From: an uncultured bacterium
GTDB taxonomy: Bacteria > Babelota > Babeliae > Babelales > Babelaceae
Direction of reading: 5' to 3'
Assembly: GCA_963722385.1 (NCBI GenBank)
Contig: CAVRKK010000002.1
Span: forward strand, 640,001-704,000
Length of the DNA stretch: 64,000 nucleotides
The position numbers were made by a program. This document shows, one piece after another, positions 43,401 through 49,400 of this stretch (the first letter of the stretch is position 1; every line of letters starts with the position of its first letter).

Positions 43401-46400
43401 GATCTTGCTCGTGGGCCTACGAGCATTCGCTGTGGACAGTGAGGTATTAAGCAAAAAGGCAGTGGTTTTCGGCATTGCCGGCCAAGATGGTTACTACCTT
43501 GCGAAGTTACTTTTAAGTAAGGGCTATGAGGTACATGGTAGTATGAGGGGTGATGACCAGGAGCTTAGAGCTTCCTTATGCTCGAGTAATCCTGACTGTT
43601 CGCTTAAGCTCATAATCCACCGTGGTGACCTGGCTGATTCAGCCTATATTAAAGAGCTCATGTTCACGGTACTGCCTGATGAGGTATATAATCTGGCAGG
43701 CCAAAGTAACGTGAGTGTTTCTTTTAAGGAGCCGGTTATTACATCGCAGGTCAATGCGTTTGCCGTGCTCACTATGTTGGAGTTGTTACGAGCATTACTC
43801 CCTCACAAGAGCATTAAATTTTTTCAAGCATCAAGCAGTCACATTTTTGGTCTTGCAGGAACCGAGCATATCGTGGATGAAAATTCCCCGTTGAGCGCTC
43901 AATCACCTTATGCGATTACGAAGCTTTACAGCCATCTTATGACCCAGCTTTATCGTCAGGCATATGGGTTATTTGCCGATAATGGGATTTTGTTTAACCA
44001 TGAATCTGAGCGTCGAAGTGCTGATTTTGTATCGCAAAAAATTGTGGAACATGCCGCTGCTTATAGGTTTGGCAAAAAGCAGGTACTCAAGCTCGGCAAT
44101 CTTGATGTCTGTCGTGATTGGGGCTATGCGCCCGACTATGTTCATGCGATGTGGCTTATGTTGCAGCAGGAAGGGCCCGATGATTATGTAATTGCATCGG
44201 GCCACAGCCATTTAGTAAGGGAGTTTGTCGAACGTGCCTATGCTTATGTTAACGTTCACTTAACATGGTCGGGGTCGAATTACGATGAAGTGGGAAGTGA
44301 TAAAGAAACAAATGAAGTTGTGGTTGCTGTCGACGCGGATTTTTTTAGGCCGTCTGAGTCGCCTTGTCTTGTAGGTAATGCTTCTAAAGCAAAAAGGGTA
44401 CTTGGCTGGGAAGCAAAAACTAATTTTACGCAGCTTGTCGCCGTCATGATGGATGCTGAGTTGGCGAGGTATGTATTGGTGCAAGAAGATGGTTTTGCGA
44501 GCGAGCCAATGCTTGCTCGCAATAGTACGCTGCTCTAATCTTGGCGAATTGAATCGCCTGTGCGGCTGGCGGTTAAGGGACAGCGTCCCTTAACAATCCT
44601 AAAGCGTTATGCTTAATGCTTATAAGCTTGGTGAGTAGTTATCGTACGCAAAAGCGTACGATAACTTACGCCATTATCATGTACGCTGCGCTTCATGATA
44701 AAATTTAATATCGCTTGTCTATTTTCCGTCAGGAAAATTGCGTTTGTCATAACCATACGGGGCGTATGGTTATGACATTAAACAAGTCAAGAAATAAGCG
44801 TATAAAGAAAGAAGCAGAGCCTTTCGCTTACGCATATTGGTGTGGGTGCAGGGCCGCCGCCCTGCCGCTCGACGCGTAGTCGCGCTAGCCGCGTAGGCGA
44901 TATATATTCTACTCCACCCCGGCGCGAAACTATAGACGGTAACCGAAGATAATGATACAGTGGTTGTGTTAATCAAAAAAGTGCGATATTTATGCAGAAA
45001 TTACGTATTGGCGTTTTAATGGGTGGCCGGTCCCAGGAGCGCGAAGTTTCACTCAATTCAGGCCGTACGATTTGCGATCATGTAGACACGTCATGCTATG
45101 TCGTTATCCCGCTGTTTCAGACAAGCGACGGTGCGTTATATGTTATGCCGAGCACTTTTCTTCATCGCGGTAAAATTAGCGATTTTGAACATCGCTTGGC
45201 GACTGAGGCTCAAAAAATAAGCTGGCACGAGCTTAAAGATATCGTTGATATTGTGTACATAGCACAACATGGTCGATTTGCTGAAGATGGCTCGCTACAG
45301 GGGCTTTTTGAAACCATAGGCATCCCCTACGTTGGTTCCAAAGTGCTGGCAAGCGCCCTTGGCATGGACAAAGCAATGCAATGCATATTTTTAAAAACAG
45401 CGGGGATAAATGTTCCAAAAAGAGTCGTTGTGCCGCCAAAAAAAGCAGGCGACGGCATAGCTCAAGGGAACTTGTGGCCCGGCTTTGCTTTTCCTTGCGT
45501 GGTAAAGCCAAGCGGTGAAGGATCAAGCCTTGGCGTTAGTGTAGTCTATGATATTGAAGAACTGATTGATGCGATCAAAAGGGCTTGTACGATAACCCCC
45601 GGCATTGAACAAGCAGTTATTATTGAAGAGTATATCCAGGGGATGGAGTTTTCATGCATTGTCTTGACCGATTATAAGGCGGGCGAGCTTCTGCCGTTGC
45701 CGCCAACGGAAATCATTCTGAACCAAGGGATGCTCTATTTTGATTATGAACAAAAATACATGCCGGGCAAAGCGATAAAGCATACACCGGCGCGCTGTAG
45801 TATGGAGCAACAAAAAAAGATCCAAGAAACCTGCATCAGTGTTATGCGAATATTGGGTATTCATAACATAGCACGTATCGATGGCTTTTTAACGGCTGAT
45901 GACCGCGTTATTATTATCGATCCTAACACGTTTTCTGGCATGGACCCGGCAAGCTTTGCCTTTGTTCAAGCTGCAGAGCTGAATATGGGCCATACGCACC
46001 TTATTAACCACCTGATCGAAACGGAGTTGCACGCATACGGTATGCTTACTAATTATGCTGAACGAAACGGTGAGATGAATAGAGTAGCTGAAAAAAAGCT
46101 GCGGGTAGGCGTCCTGTTGGGTGGTGCTTCCAACGAAAGGGAGATTTCCCTTGCTTCTGGTAGAAACGTTATGTATAAGCTGTCTCCCCACAAATATGAG
46201 CCAATCGCTCTTTTCGTGAGCTCTGCTCGCCAGCTCTACAAAATTGACCAGCGCCTGCTGGTACGCAATACGACAGCCGAAATTGAGGCATCGCTTGAGG
46301 TGGGTATGCATATACCGTGGAGCGAGCTGCCAGATCATATTGATTTTGCTTTTAACGGCCTACATGGGGGACATGGCGAAAATGGCTGTGTTCAAGGAAC

Positions 46401-49400
46401 GCTCGAAACGCTTGCTCTCCCCTATAATGGTTCATCAGTGCTTGCCAGCGCTCTCTGCATGGATAAATTTAAAACAACACAACTGCTGCGCGAAAAGCAT
46501 ATTGCTGTTCCACAAGCACAGCTTATAACACGAAAAATGTGGGAATCGACGAGTTTCGCGCCAGTAAGCTGCTATCCATGCATTATAAAGCCAAATGATG
46601 ACGGTTGCAGCGTGCTTGTGCAGAAAGCGTATTCAAATGAGGAATTGAGAGCTGCGCTCGGTCTTATTTTTGCTTCGGGAAAGCATGAAGCGCTTGTTGA
46701 AGAATTTATTACCGGCATGGAACTTACCGTGGGCGTTATTGGTAACACCCATTCCTATGCCTTGCTGCCGAGTATGTCGGTTGCTCAAAATAGCATCCTC
46801 TCTATTCAGGAGAAATTTTTGCCAGGAGCTGGCGAAAACCAGACGCCGGCGCCATTGGCACCGGCAGCAATACGTCTTGTTCAGCGCACGATGGAAAATG
46901 CCTATAGCGCTGTTGGCTGTAAAGGATATGCTCGCATCGATTGTTTTTATCAGCCAAGTGCTATAAGCCCGACCGGCCAAGACCGCGTGGTAATTTTAGA
47001 GATCAACACACTACCAGCGCTTACGCCGGCAACTTGCCTGTTTCATCAGGCTGCTGAAGTGGGCTTGCGCCCCATGGAATTCATAGATCTGCTTGTCCAA
47101 CTTGGCCTAGAAGAGCATTCATCACCACTGTTGGCAAGTAAGCCAGAGATCGTTATCGATACATTGGTGCAGCACCGCAATGCATGATTATATCTCTTTT
47201 TCCCCGTACGGCCCCGATTGTCTAGGGTTGACCTGAAGTAATACTTGCTTGTAAGACATTATTCTGCTGCGTTACCGTAATGGTCGCATCTCCAGTGCTT
47301 GATGGAAAACGACGGCTAGATACCTCGACAGGAGTTACCGACTTATCATCGGTGGTGATGTAGATATTGCCGACGGAGCACACCCAGCCTTTGAGACGCC
47401 CAGATTTATAGGAGCGATCGAGGTGCACCGTTTTTCCTGGTGGCGCGCTTAATGGCTTTTCGTCGTGACATGTAGTGCTGTTGAATGCTTCATACTGAAC
47501 TATAGCACTGATGACTTTATCGGTCTTGTTGACGAAGTAAATGCTTGCAATAGCCGATATGCTCTGGTTGATTCCCAGCAGGAAACTGGCAGCAAGAAAT
47601 ATACAAGATCGTAGTGAGATCATAATAAGCTCCTTTTTTATTTCAACGGTTAGTATTATTATCACTCACACTATCATAAATATGTTTCAAATATCAATAA
47701 TTGTTAAATAGGCTAACCAGAATACTGACATAATGCTATCGAAAAATCTTGCTCTTGGTAGCATTTCGGGATAATATAAAGCGACCAAATTTGTATATCA
47801 TAAACTGAAGGGGAGCGTCCCGTTGATAGATTTATTCCCGCATTACGGCAGAGGGTTCGATAAATCAGATGTTTTGGCAGAAAATATTGTCATAAAATAC
47901 GGGTAAATGCTGGAAATAGTCGAGAACATCTCTATGACAACCATGACGAATACGCTCACGCTTGAGATTGCACAAAGAATGGCTGATGCGGCTCAAAAAG
48001 CCGCATCAGAAATGGACCTAAAGATTGCCATTGCTATCATGGACAACCATGGCAACCTCAAGTATTATCGGCGGATGGATGACAATAGCTTTATCAGCGT
48101 CCGCATGTCCCAGCTTAAAGCACTTACTTCTGCAAGTATGCCAATTTCTACCAAGGCACTTGCTGAGCGAAATCAAAAAATCCCCAATGGGCCCTATCTC
48201 AATGTTCCTGGTATTGTGCTCCTTGAGGGAGGTTTGCCAATCATTACCCCAGACAAGCAACATATCGGATCAATTGGCATCAGTGGCGCGACCCCGGAGC
48301 TTGACGGCATGTGCGCACAGGCTGCCATAGATGCAATCGTTGATTATTTATGAGCAAAAATGTCTAAAAAATGGGTAAAGCATGTGCAAGAGACGTCTTT
48401 TGCGATGGACATTCCTGCGGGCCTTTTTACGCGATCACCGCGGCAGATTGCTTTAGGGCTTAAGCAGGCGGTTCTGAGCAGTAACCGCACCAAGGGGACC
48501 AAGTTTCAGTCAGCGATGTCTATGCTGAATTTCTATATTAACCGCGCCGGTAAGAACCTCTCACCAGAAGATCGCGAGCGACTCGAAAAAGCAAAAATTG
48601 AGCTTCGCAAAGCATTTAACCGGCAGTAGACTTTTTAGCAAAAAATGCCAAGCCTTTGCGCAGCAGCGCATCAAATGTTGCATGCTCGAGCCAGCCCTCT
48701 TTCTTTAAGTGCTCAAGGCATGCACTGGTTTCTGCTCGCGAATACCCCAGCGAAGCAAGTACTTCTGAAAGTTGCTTGATAGAAGAGACCGTGGGCGTTT
48801 GGCTAAATTCAGGAGAAAGTGAAAGCTTGCCGATCTTGTCTTTGAGTTGCATAATCAGGCTTTCTGCCTTTTTGGGGCCGACGCCATCGATACCATGAAA
48901 CGCTCGCACGTCACCTGATAGCACTGCTGAGACAAAAAGAGCCGGTGAAAGAGCGCCGAGAATTGCCAGCCCTATCTTGGGTCCAATACCCGAACAAGCA
49001 ATGATTAATGAAAAAATATGCCGCTCATCGCTGCTCGCAAAACCAAAGAGCTGCATGCCCTGATCCTGCGTTACGTGGGTATAAATAGCAAGTTCCAGGG
49101 GGCCGCCTAAGGTAGCATGAACATTAGATGGCACGGTTACCAAAAAGCCTATACCATTGGCAACCAGTGTGATATGGGGTGTCTGAACAGCGTGGGCAGT
49201 GCCCGTCAAATAAGCAATCATGCGGTTCCTTTTTTTACTTTTACTATTGTATAAAATTCGCGAGCTATTGACAAATCCAGTAGTTCTGGTAGTTTTCATG
49301 GTAGTAGCTGTGCGGGAATAGCTCAGTTGGTAGAGCGTTGCCTTGCCAAGGCAAAGGTCGCGGGTTCGAATCCCGTTTCCCGCTCCAATATCTGCAACTT

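Follow-up and report, generated by a model that had tools for sequence, protein, structure and literature searches.

Introduction

[quoted passage not shown] In the accessible parts of the literature, the residues named for its acceptor (second D-Ala) site are Y210, Y216, S281 and L282 (E. coli DdlB numbering, our reference for residue mapping throughout), and Mg is described as bound by E270 (PMC6899670, whose Glu275 we mapped to E270). Tyr or Phe at position 216 switches between dipeptide and depsipeptide specificity in both E. coli DdlB and L. reuteri: the Y216F mutation confers depsipeptide activity on DdlB, and F258Y renders L. reuteri sensitive to vancomycin (PMC3378904).

Two fused Ddl modules have been described in plants, in PpDDL of Physcomitrium patens and AtDDL of Arabidopsis (PMC9954125). 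Knockout of the moss gene blocks plastid division (Hirano 2016, as cited by others), and mass spectrometry of the moss UDP-pentapeptide gave m/z 595.6646, where 595.6629 is expected for the Ala-Ala form, with no Lac or Ser form reported. In Arabidopsis, plastids stay normal in lines whose remaining transcript covers the 3′ module only, a point that the authors call unconfirmed (PMC9954125). The plant fusion is already in print; in the literature accessible to us we found no description of an asymmetry between its halves, and no two-gene form of such a Ddl.

Results

The window, a stretch of 64,000 nucleotides from a Babelota genome that was analysed as a whole, carries at 44992..47187 (+) a single ORF of 731 aa in which PF01820 (Dala_Dala_lig_N) and PF07478 (Dala_Dala_lig_C) each match twice. 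Both halves align end to end with solved Ddl structures, and the AlphaFold2 model of the fused chain (mean pLDDT 93.9, pTM 0.92) has two full Ddl folds; among the Foldseek matches listed for it, all are Ddl or Van ligases. These data bear out a preliminary description of the gene as two complete Ddl modules fused head to tail and as the only Ddl of its genome (93% complete), where PF07478 matches nothing beyond the two halves of this gene. Structure matches, the AlphaFold2 model and residue mapping place module 1 (M1, residues 1–348) at 44992..46035 (+) and module 2 (M2, residues 368–710) at 46093..47121 (+). The linker between them (46036..46092, +) contains Met362, whose ATG lies at 46075; a linker Met is present in 56 of 67 fused Babelota proteins and is possibly a relic start or an internal start of M2. 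A frameshift or assembly artefact was ruled out, with one long ORF in 74 of 80 related loci (one of the 80, L031, is an odd overlapping pair that was later left out). No Rfam match was found around the gene.

Mapping onto E. coli DdlB upheld the contrast first drawn between the modules, in which the E15-S150-Y216 triad is complete in M1 (E16/S178/Y256) and Glu-Cys-Phe in M2, although the M2 residue numbers first given were all one too high (they are E382, K533, C539, K608, F609, R648, D650 and N672). M1 further retains K127, K172, K255, R295, D297 and N312, and M2 also retains H458, K492, E670 and P675. The core residues E15, H63, K97, K144, K215, R255, D257 and N272 are present in both modules. 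The preliminary description had overlooked the Mg ligand: in the motif E-x-N-T-x-P-G, M2 has E270 whereas M1 has Asp and Ser instead, with D310 (codon 45919..45921, +) replacing the Mg-binding Glu270 as an M1 signature and S315 replacing P275. F322 stands at the L282 position of M1. The substitutions in M2 are C539 at the S150 position and F609 at the Y216 position, both M2 signatures (codons 46606..46608 and 46816..46818, +), together with L603 (Y210), T681 (S281) and C682 (L282).

We then followed these positions across 188 Babelota and plant module pairs, chosen without regard to the motifs. Position 150 is Ser in 188/188 M1 and Cys in 188/188 M2, and position 216 is Tyr in 188/188 M1 and Phe in 188/188 M2, which is stronger than the conservation of at least 90% first claimed. 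Asp occupies position 270 of M1 in 184 of the 188 pairs and, in another count, in 353 of 357, where E15, K97, K215, R255 and D257 of M1 are invariant (357/357). Ser is retained at the M2 Cys position in four distant representatives (P0007, P0103, P0119, P0140). With five changes in all (S150C, Y210L, Y216F, S281T and L282V/C), the acceptor site of M2 is systematically remodelled, and the asymmetry is two-sided, with the acceptor site altered in M2 and the Mg ligand (E270D) in M1. Since these differences lie in the active sites and are fixed from Syntrophales to flowering plants, selection on distinct roles fits better than drift. Overall evolutionary rate was dropped as a marker of a dead module because lineages disagree: conservation is 0.63 in M2 versus 0.57 in M1 in Babelota, and 0.69 in M1 versus 0.57 in M2 in the CPR type.

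A Babelota-specific novelty was ruled out, as the fused pair also occurs in many Bacteroidota, in Patescibacteria and in green plants, and in Syntrophales each module has a gene of its own. Moss chloroplast DDL (P0181, UniRef Q3LHI3; cluster named D-alanine-D-alanine ligase) carries both signatures. By our own tally by bit-score class, 51 of 71 Syntrophales genomes have M2, 50 of these 51 also have M1 and 0/51 have a mid-score canonical Ddl match; of the remainder, 17 lack both modules and carry a single mid-score Ddl, and 3 have none of these. The canonical E-x-N-T-x-P-G motif was found in 10/10 genomes sampled from the 17, and in two of these 10 alr lies directly upstream of the canonical ddl, the same place that it takes before M1 in pair genomes. 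Because the Syntrophales genomes are kin, this co-occurrence does not amount to many independent events. M1 and M2 are both retained even 258 kb apart. The pair is the only Ddl in 5/5 Bacteroidota, 4/5 Patescibacteria-type and 4/5 two-gene genomes checked; one Anaerolineae and one Kaiserbacteria genome have an extra Ddl-like gene, and the extra matches in 5/5 Babelota genomes checked are weak and lie in unrelated ORFs. A Ddl match is present in 191/201 Babelota. In the tree, M1 clusters with M1 and M2 with M2, plants included. A quick tree minus the motif columns kept M1 (99) and the separation of M1 and M2 from canonical Ddl (99), while M2 needed two changes, so that M2 monophyly rests partly on those columns. 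Sequence, context and tree together show M1 and M2 to be two paralogous kinds of subunit that occur jointly, as two genes or one chain, and replace the single ddl.

The predicted complex of separate Syntrophales M1 and M2 scored 0.92 versus 0.00 for the best control, on a scale whose mark is reached by 116/157 solved complexes and 2/215 mismatches. Across runs contact agreement was at least 97% and partner pLDDT at least 88, with M1 and M2 predicted to touch via the helices that follow the HG..E.G motif. This pass may derive from likeness to solved Ddl homodimers, and the score does not separate a heterodimer from two homodimers.

The surroundings of the genes point to D-Ala-D-Ala as the product. 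Neighbouring alr genes occur in 22/55 two-gene loci and 22/80 CPR-type loci, and the linked racemases are of the Tyr354 type (23/23 and 21/22, respectively). Fusions to MurF and to MurF+Alr occur, one pair sits inside a murB-ftsQAZ cluster, and the source genome carries murC-F, two alr and three PBPs. An unlinked Alr paralogue there has Asn at the Tyr354/VanT Asn696 position, which suggested D-Ser supply, but as a family trait this was ruled out by the Tyr of the linked racemases; the Asn type was seen in only 3/32 sampled Babelota racemases. As first described, the source genome has no gene for a D-lactate dehydrogenase, or for any D-2-hydroxyacid dehydrogenase; by PF00389 such genes occur in 35/201 Babelota and in none of the other 166 (a DNA search with vanH in 6 genomes gave no useful answer over so large an evolutionary distance). 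VanX-like genes are found in 108/201 Babelota, including a VanX/DdpX-like dipeptidase in the source genome ∼118 kb from the Ddl gene, and in one Babelota genome (L335) a D-LDH/VanH-like gene adjoins a VanX-like gene. No van cluster, with vanH-ligase-vanX neighbours, surrounds the Ddl gene of the source genome, and such a cluster was rejected as a family trait: the recurrent neighbours listed for 80 CPR-type loci and for 80 Babelota loci include neither a D-LDH nor a VanX. The literature on vancomycin phenotypes of cultured carriers yielded nothing useful.

Discussion

The best explanation of these results is an ancient Ddl of two subunits, which the 731-aa protein represents in fused form. M1 and M2 would pack via the normal Ddl dimer surface, so that one chain or an M1:M2 heterodimer would replace the homodimer, and the net product handed to MurF would be D-Ala-D-Ala made from alanine-racemase D-Ala. 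The least certain part is that the two sites would divide labour: catalysis would fall mainly to M2, with its canonical metal motif and a looser acceptor pocket, and M1, in which the triad is kept but the Mg ligand is shortened (E270D) and P275 is Ser, may be a slower or regulatory site still binding ATP and D-Ala or product. An obligate pair with net D-Ala-D-Ala synthesis is probable on the indirect basis of moss mass spectrometry and gene context; for the whole statement, this division of labour included, we put the probability at roughly 0.5. Against this explanation stand the invariant M1 core, unlike that of a decayed pseudo-enzyme, overall conservation that singles out neither module, and the five coordinated changes in the M2 acceptor site, which look like a substrate change. 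The fallback offered in the preliminary description, a dimer fixed in one chain with one of its pockets altered, comes closer to the evidence than its main proposal did.

[quoted passage not shown] Mutual dependence alone would account for co-retention and fusion, core catalytic residues other than E270 are kept in both modules, and Syntrophales M1 and M2, each alone, exceed the TIGR01205 and NF002378 cut-offs. We nevertheless regard this as rather unlikely, given that the active sites are where the differences lie and that these are fixed over so wide a range.

The main proposal of the preliminary description was that M1 makes D-Ala-D-Ala and M2 joins D-Ala to another acceptor (D-lactate, D-serine or some non-canonical D-amino acid that is scavenged), so that the stem peptides would have mixed ends. 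The remodelled M2 acceptor site, near-invariant at all five positions, bears out one part of it, as do the published effects at position 216, on which that description correctly drew; the Asn-type Alr and VanX/DdpX-like dipeptidase of the source genome and the L335 gene pair also speak for it. A dedicated D-Lac or D-Ser role of M2 is not supported, however, given the lack of a D-2-hydroxyacid dehydrogenase in the source genome and the rarity of such genes in Babelota, the Tyr type of the linked racemases and the rarity of Asn-type ones, the failure of M2 at every Van cut-off, its position outside VanA in the tree and its Cys where L. reuteri has Ser186. Moss shows the Ala-Ala form, an optional resistance module would be expected to be lost from tiny genomes and plastids rather than kept with M1, and M1, lacking the canonical Mg ligand and P275, is no plain Ddl. 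For these reasons we consider the proposal doubtful. A D-Lac pentapeptide would have a calculated m/z of 596.155 and so fall beneath the Ala-Ala form's +1 isotope peak at 596.165 (our own arithmetic), so a minor depsipeptide is compatible with the moss table, and a minor D-Lac product beside D-Ala-D-Ala is possible. In its widest form, which we think improbable, M2 would be an unrecognised D-Ala-D-X subunit giving Babelota, many Patescibacteria, Bacteroidota, Syntrophales and chloroplasts precursor ends that are partly non-D-Ala (D-lactate, D-serine or scavenged D-amino acids), the heterodimer would set the product ratio, and the plants' donor would be of Patescibacteria type rather than cyanobacterial. 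Sequential action or editing, for example a thioester of activated D-alanyl on the M2 P-loop Cys or hydrolysis of wrong dipeptides by M2, would suit obligate pairing and a near-invariant Cys beside the D-alanyl-phosphate site, but is very improbable, with Ser at that position in four representatives, each active site of Ddl dimers lying within one subunit, and no precedent in Ddl that we know of.

A widespread Ddl whose two subunits are unlike and each carry a fixed active-site defect relative to the textbook enzyme would point to allosteric control or a second product at a step that several bacterial phyla need to build their cell wall. Automatic annotation would take the Syntrophales pair for two redundant ddl genes, and this natural two-gene form makes subunit-by-subunit testing easy. 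In Arabidopsis, a second half that survived may have hidden the effect of the knockouts.

Compared with canonical Ddl (E. coli DdlB/DdlA; TIGR01205, NF002378; PDB 1IOV/2DLN), the two-subunit enzyme shares the fold, the ATP-grasp catalytic residues, the genomic role (alr, MurF, dcw context) and the predicted dimer surface. It differs in being a pair of unlike subunits, fused or from two genes, rather than a homodimer from one, and the canonical set is incomplete in both modules (E270 and P275 are missing from M1, and S150, Y210, Y216, S281 and L282 from M2). Each module of the 731-aa protein falls just under the TIGR01205/NF002378 cut-offs of 243/245.65 bits (M1 227/221, M2 219/209). The Phe at 216 is what M2 has in common with DdlB Y216F (PDB 1IOW) and with the Phe-type ligases of lactic acid bacteria, Leuconostoc LmDdl2 (PDB 1EHI) and L. 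reuteri Ddl, but the L. reuteri triad is E17/S186/F258, with Ser where M2 has Cys539. M2 shows no special closeness to 1EHI among Ddl (34th of 37 for M2) and resembles it less than M1 does (64.6 versus 90.4 bits), and those Phe-type ligases are single-subunit enzymes of D-lactate producers, unlike most Babelota M2 carriers, which have no D-2-hydroxyacid dehydrogenase. The Van ligases VanA/B/D (D-Ala-D-Lac) and VanC/E/G/L/N (D-Ala-D-Ser) likewise combine the same fold with an altered acceptor pocket, but M2 lies far below all of their cut-offs (100–152 bits versus 495–775), for example 140 versus 550 for VanA/B/D and 133 versus 520 and 152 versus 495 for VanC/E/G/L/N (NCBIfam). The VanA omega loop is absent from the Babelota protein. 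Arg at the L282 position, a trait of the VanC/E/G/L/N D-Ala-D-Ser ligases, is absent as well, and M2 has Cys or Val there. Plant chloroplast DDL, finally, differs in its length of about 950 aa, with an N-terminal extension and inserts, and is about 31% identical to the Babelota protein, yet its M1 and M2 signatures are identical and it groups module by module in the tree. It is the same enzyme, of the same family, and its nearest relatives lie on the Patescibacteria-type branch rather than the Babelota branch (SH-aLRT 100, both modules).

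The tandem ligase comprises two diverged modules

The tandem Ddl (D-alanine–D-alanine ligase) is encoded on the forward strand at window positions 44992–47187 as a single open reading frame (ORF) of 731 amino acids, in which the Pfam Ddl N and C domains each occur twice and both halves can be aligned over their whole length with Ddl proteins of known structure. The AlphaFold2 model, built on a 105-row alignment, has a mean pLDDT of 93.9 and a pTM of 0.92, so that both folds, and how they lie relative to each other, are predicted with confidence, and all listed Foldseek matches are Ddl or Van ligases. 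These results bear out the preliminary description of two complete Ddl modules in one ORF (M1, the N-terminal half, and M2, the C-terminal half), and also of the genome's only Ddl, since the two halves are the only PF07478 matches in the source genome (93% complete).

We mapped 357 M1 and 378 M2 modules onto E. coli DdlB, whose numbering is used here, after dropping 16 of 344 fused proteins that were not splittable and the loci L031 and L061. E15, K97, E187 and K215 are kept in every module, with few or no exceptions at R255, D257, H63 and N272. The changes in M2 are S150C, Y216F and Y210L (378/378 each), S281T (376/378) and L282V/C/A, and those in M1 are E270D (353/357), P275S/T, L282F and, in 18 modules, K144R, counts that are partly by construction in the Bacteroidota and Patescibacteria-type (CPR-type) rows, selected on the M2 Lys-Phe motif, and in the two-gene rows, selected on Gly-Cys or Asp-Pro-Asn. 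Among 188 Babelota and plant pairs that were not picked by motif, position 150 is Ser in 188 M1 and Cys in 188 M2, position 216 is Tyr in 188 and Phe in 188, and position 270 is Asp in 184 M1 and Glu in 188 M2. The conserved Glu-Ser-Tyr and Glu-Cys-Phe sets first described for M1 and M2 thus hold up; the M2 residues had been identified correctly but numbered one too high, and lie at E382, K533, C539, K608, F609, R648, D650 and N672 of the 731-residue protein. Ser instead of Cys is found at M2 position 150 in four distant representatives.

According to the available text of PMC6899670, Tyr215, Tyr221, Ser286 and Leu287 contact D-Ala-D-Ala and Glu275 is a Mg ligand; in our own mapping these are Y210, Y216, S281, L282 and E270 of DdlB. 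Because the module-specific changes fall at these sites, M2 has, by sequence, a rebuilt acceptor pocket beside a normal metal site; in M1 the pocket is near-normal and the metal site altered.

Fused and two-gene forms occur beyond Babelota

We compared 80 closely related loci, most of them bearing a Babelota/TM6 label or listed as unclassified: the ligase is one long ORF in 74, split in 4 and cut by a contig end in 2. Three split Babelota loci (L041, L064 and L071) break cleanly at the linker, and a fourth resembles a homopolymer error. PF07478 is matched in 191 of 201 Babelota genomes, at least twice in all but one of these, the surplus matches being weak and in other ORFs (5/5 Babelota genomes checked). 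Four Babelota genomes that are 95–98% complete (G043, G096, G028 and G079) have no Ddl and 0–1 Mur ligase matches, which suggests that peptidoglycan was lost in families f9 and f11 and in one f1 genus; in a further genome, G111, no Ddl was found though five Mur matches are kept. The only Ddl of one TM6-labelled genome (locus L270) is of the Patescibacteria type, not the Babelota type; a transferred gene may have replaced the original, or the sequence may have been misbinned.

A representative search located the two-module build well outside Babelota, as Bacteroidota forms of 840–950 aa, as forms of ∼790 aa, mostly from Patescibacteria (at least 544 confirmed of at least 602 pattern matches), and in green algae and land plants. 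The Physcomitrium protein P0181 clusters with Q3LHI3, named D-alanine-D-alanine ligase, and plant DDL is described in the accessible text of PMC9954125 as two putative DDL enzymes joined in one protein across the plant lineage. The source genome has no Ddl besides the tandem, and the same holds for the tandem or pair in 13 of 15 further genomes checked individually outside the phylum search. Three representative proteins, P0087, P0133 and P0026, are bigger fusions (tandem Ddl-MurF, tandem Ddl-MurF-Alr of 1638 aa, and tandem Ddl-PASTA).

Stand-alone M2-type proteins were the route to a two-gene form, in which separate M1 and M2 genes (∼355 aa each), often in the order alr-M1-(x)-M2, occur in Syntrophales and in one Uhrbacteria, one Gammaproteobacteria-labelled and one Anaerolineae MAG. 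When 71 Syntrophales genomes were searched with an M2 profile and classed by bit score, M2 was present in 51 (3 partial) and M1 in 50 of these 51 (1 partial; G212 is the exception), with a mid-score (canonical-class) Ddl match in 0 of the 51, a clear co-occurrence pattern that represents few independent events because the genomes are kin. A single mid-score Ddl, with neither M1 nor M2, is found in 17/71, and 3/71 have no Ddl match. Ten of these 17 were fetched and carry E-x-N-T-x-P-G (10/10), Ser150 (9/10) and an omega-loop Lys-Tyr (8/10), with alr directly upstream in two fetched genomes. On one complete chromosome M1 and M2, the sole Ddl genes, are 258 kb apart. An Anaerolineae cluster (L221:594-8623) reads murB-M1-M2-canonical ddl-ftsQ-ftsA-ftsZ, and here the motifs of M1 and of M2 alike have diverged, as though the canonical ddl had rendered them redundant. 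The linker contains Met in 56 of 67 fused Babelota proteins versus 10–21% in other groups, and an SD-like word precedes this codon in 18/75 cases, versus 80/1185 controls and 34/61 gene starts.

A quick IQ-TREE search with SH-aLRT support only, run on 85 rows (13 canonical or Van ligases plus 36 pairs), unites all M1 (99) and, separately, all M2 (96), and sets the two jointly apart from the outgroups (99). Within each of the two groups the two-gene pairs branch earliest, and plants group with the CPR type at a support of 100 for either module. With motif columns removed, M1 (99), M1 plus M2 versus outgroups (99), the fused groups (92/98) and plant plus CPR (100) all hold, but M2 taken as one group requires two changes. 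The simplest reading, given a small outgroup without cyanobacterial or lactobacillus Ddl, is that one old duplication was followed by a fusion and, within Babelota, by secondary splitting.

Proposed packing and division of labour

The contact between M1 and M2 would most likely be formed by the helices through which Ddl normally dimerizes. The model of the fused chain is a confident one, and in complex prediction the separate Syntrophales modules scored 0.92 versus 0.00 for the best control, the mark being reached by 116/157 solved complexes and 2/215 mismatches, a score that may reflect likeness only, since Ddl homodimers are already solved, and with which homodimers are compatible. Contact agreement between runs was at least 97% and partner pLDDT at least 88.

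Within the pair, M2 would be the main catalytic site and M1 a slower or regulatory site. M2 is favoured because E270 and P275 are retained only there, because its K144 is never changed, and because Arabidopsis lines transcribing just the 3′ half look normal, an observation that the authors, in the text available of PMC9954125, call unconfirmed. We place the whole statement, that the pair makes D-Ala-D-Ala with M2 as its main site and M1 as a slower or regulatory one, at a probability of about 0.5, held there because M1 is otherwise intact and overall rates are inconsistent. A pair of entrenched twin catalysts appears rather unlikely.

The product of the pair

Several observations, among them the sole-Ddl status noted above, point towards D-Ala-D-Ala. 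Alanine racemase genes are neighbours at 22 of 55 two-gene and 22 of 80 CPR-type loci, and the neighbouring racemases are Tyr354-type in 23/23 and 21/22, respectively; fusions to MurF and to MurF plus Alr are counted towards the same product, and murC-F, two alr genes and three PBPs are present in the source genome. Moss ddl knockout leads to giant chloroplasts, according to secondary citations in the accessible parts of PMC9434261, PMC9954125, PMC7432710 and PMC12681378. The moss precursor at m/z 595.6646 by MS fits Ala-Ala in the part of PMC9434261 available, though by calculation a D-Lac precursor would differ by 0.01 m/z from the 13C peak of its Ala-Ala counterpart, which leaves the moss table compatible with a minor D-Lac fraction. 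We infer that the M1/M2 pair probably supplies D-Ala-D-Ala to MurF. In Babelota families f7, f10 and f12 the tandem ligase is kept and alanine racemase is mostly absent (0/4, 3/23 and 0/9), so these families must have another source of D-Ala.

M2 had previously been read as a D-Ala-D-X ligase. The altered pocket stands; a dedicated D-Lac or D-Ser product is not supported, since Van profile scores are 100–152 bits against cut-offs of 495–775 and the source genome has no D-2-hydroxyacid dehydrogenase, its one weak match being 6-phosphogluconate dehydrogenase, in agreement with the earlier failure to see a D-lactate dehydrogenase. The rebuilt acceptor pocket itself speaks for a D-Ala-D-X module, as do the Y216F and F258Y experiments in the available text of PMC3378904, an Asn-type Alr unlinked to the ligase in the source genome (PMC4542195 for Asn), a VanX/DdpX-like dipeptidase there and in 108/201 Babelota, and D-LDH/VanH-like genes in a minority of Babelota. 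However, D-2-hydroxyacid dehydrogenase is found in only 35/201 Babelota, and L. reuteri has Ser next to its Phe (same text of PMC3378904), unlike the Cys of M2, and we regard this product as unlikely, slightly more so than twin catalysts. Sequential or editing chemistry between the modules is highly improbable.

Two racemases on contig C2 of the source genome (L084:1054-2262, minus strand; L083:1273-2604, plus strand) lack Tyr354, one having Asn and the other Ile at that position; Asn here is the VanT serine-specificity residue in the text available of PMC4542195. Among 32 Babelota racemases sampled, Tyr is found in 24 and Asn in 3. The D-Ala-D-Ala dipeptidase on the same contig (L367:1429-2079, minus strand; NF007557 above cut-off) has a hydrophobic, signal-like N-terminus. 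In another genome (G054, locus L335) a VanX-like gene has a D-lactate-dehydrogenase/VanH-like gene immediately upstream, an arrangement that resembles vanH-vanX but includes no ligase.

Surroundings of the ligase gene

By gene annotation, a glycan cluster upstream of the ligase (window 35376–44538) encodes a sulfotransferase, two GDP-mannose 4,6-dehydratases, two GT4 glycosyltransferases and an ankyrin-GT2 fusion, genes that are absent from the recurrent ligase neighbours in other Babelota. Also upstream, BLAST places a dispersed repeat of ∼355 bp at 44548–44901, with further copies near 7058, 28677–29019, 52450 and 61401, and 16 full-length copies and 54 BLAST matches genome-wide. It has a 19-nt terminal inverted repeat and encloses three perfect hairpins, of which at least one shows paired changes between copies; it has no Rfam match and appears MITE- or REP/BIME-like.

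Comparison with known ligases

A full-text literature search, covering few subscription journals and most papers by listing and abstract, found neither the bacterial tandem enzyme nor the two-gene form described, and nothing on the module signatures or on a link with CPR. The fused build is already in print for plants, in the accessible text of PMC9954125, and the tandem or two-gene Ddl is a real, widespread variant of a known enzyme.
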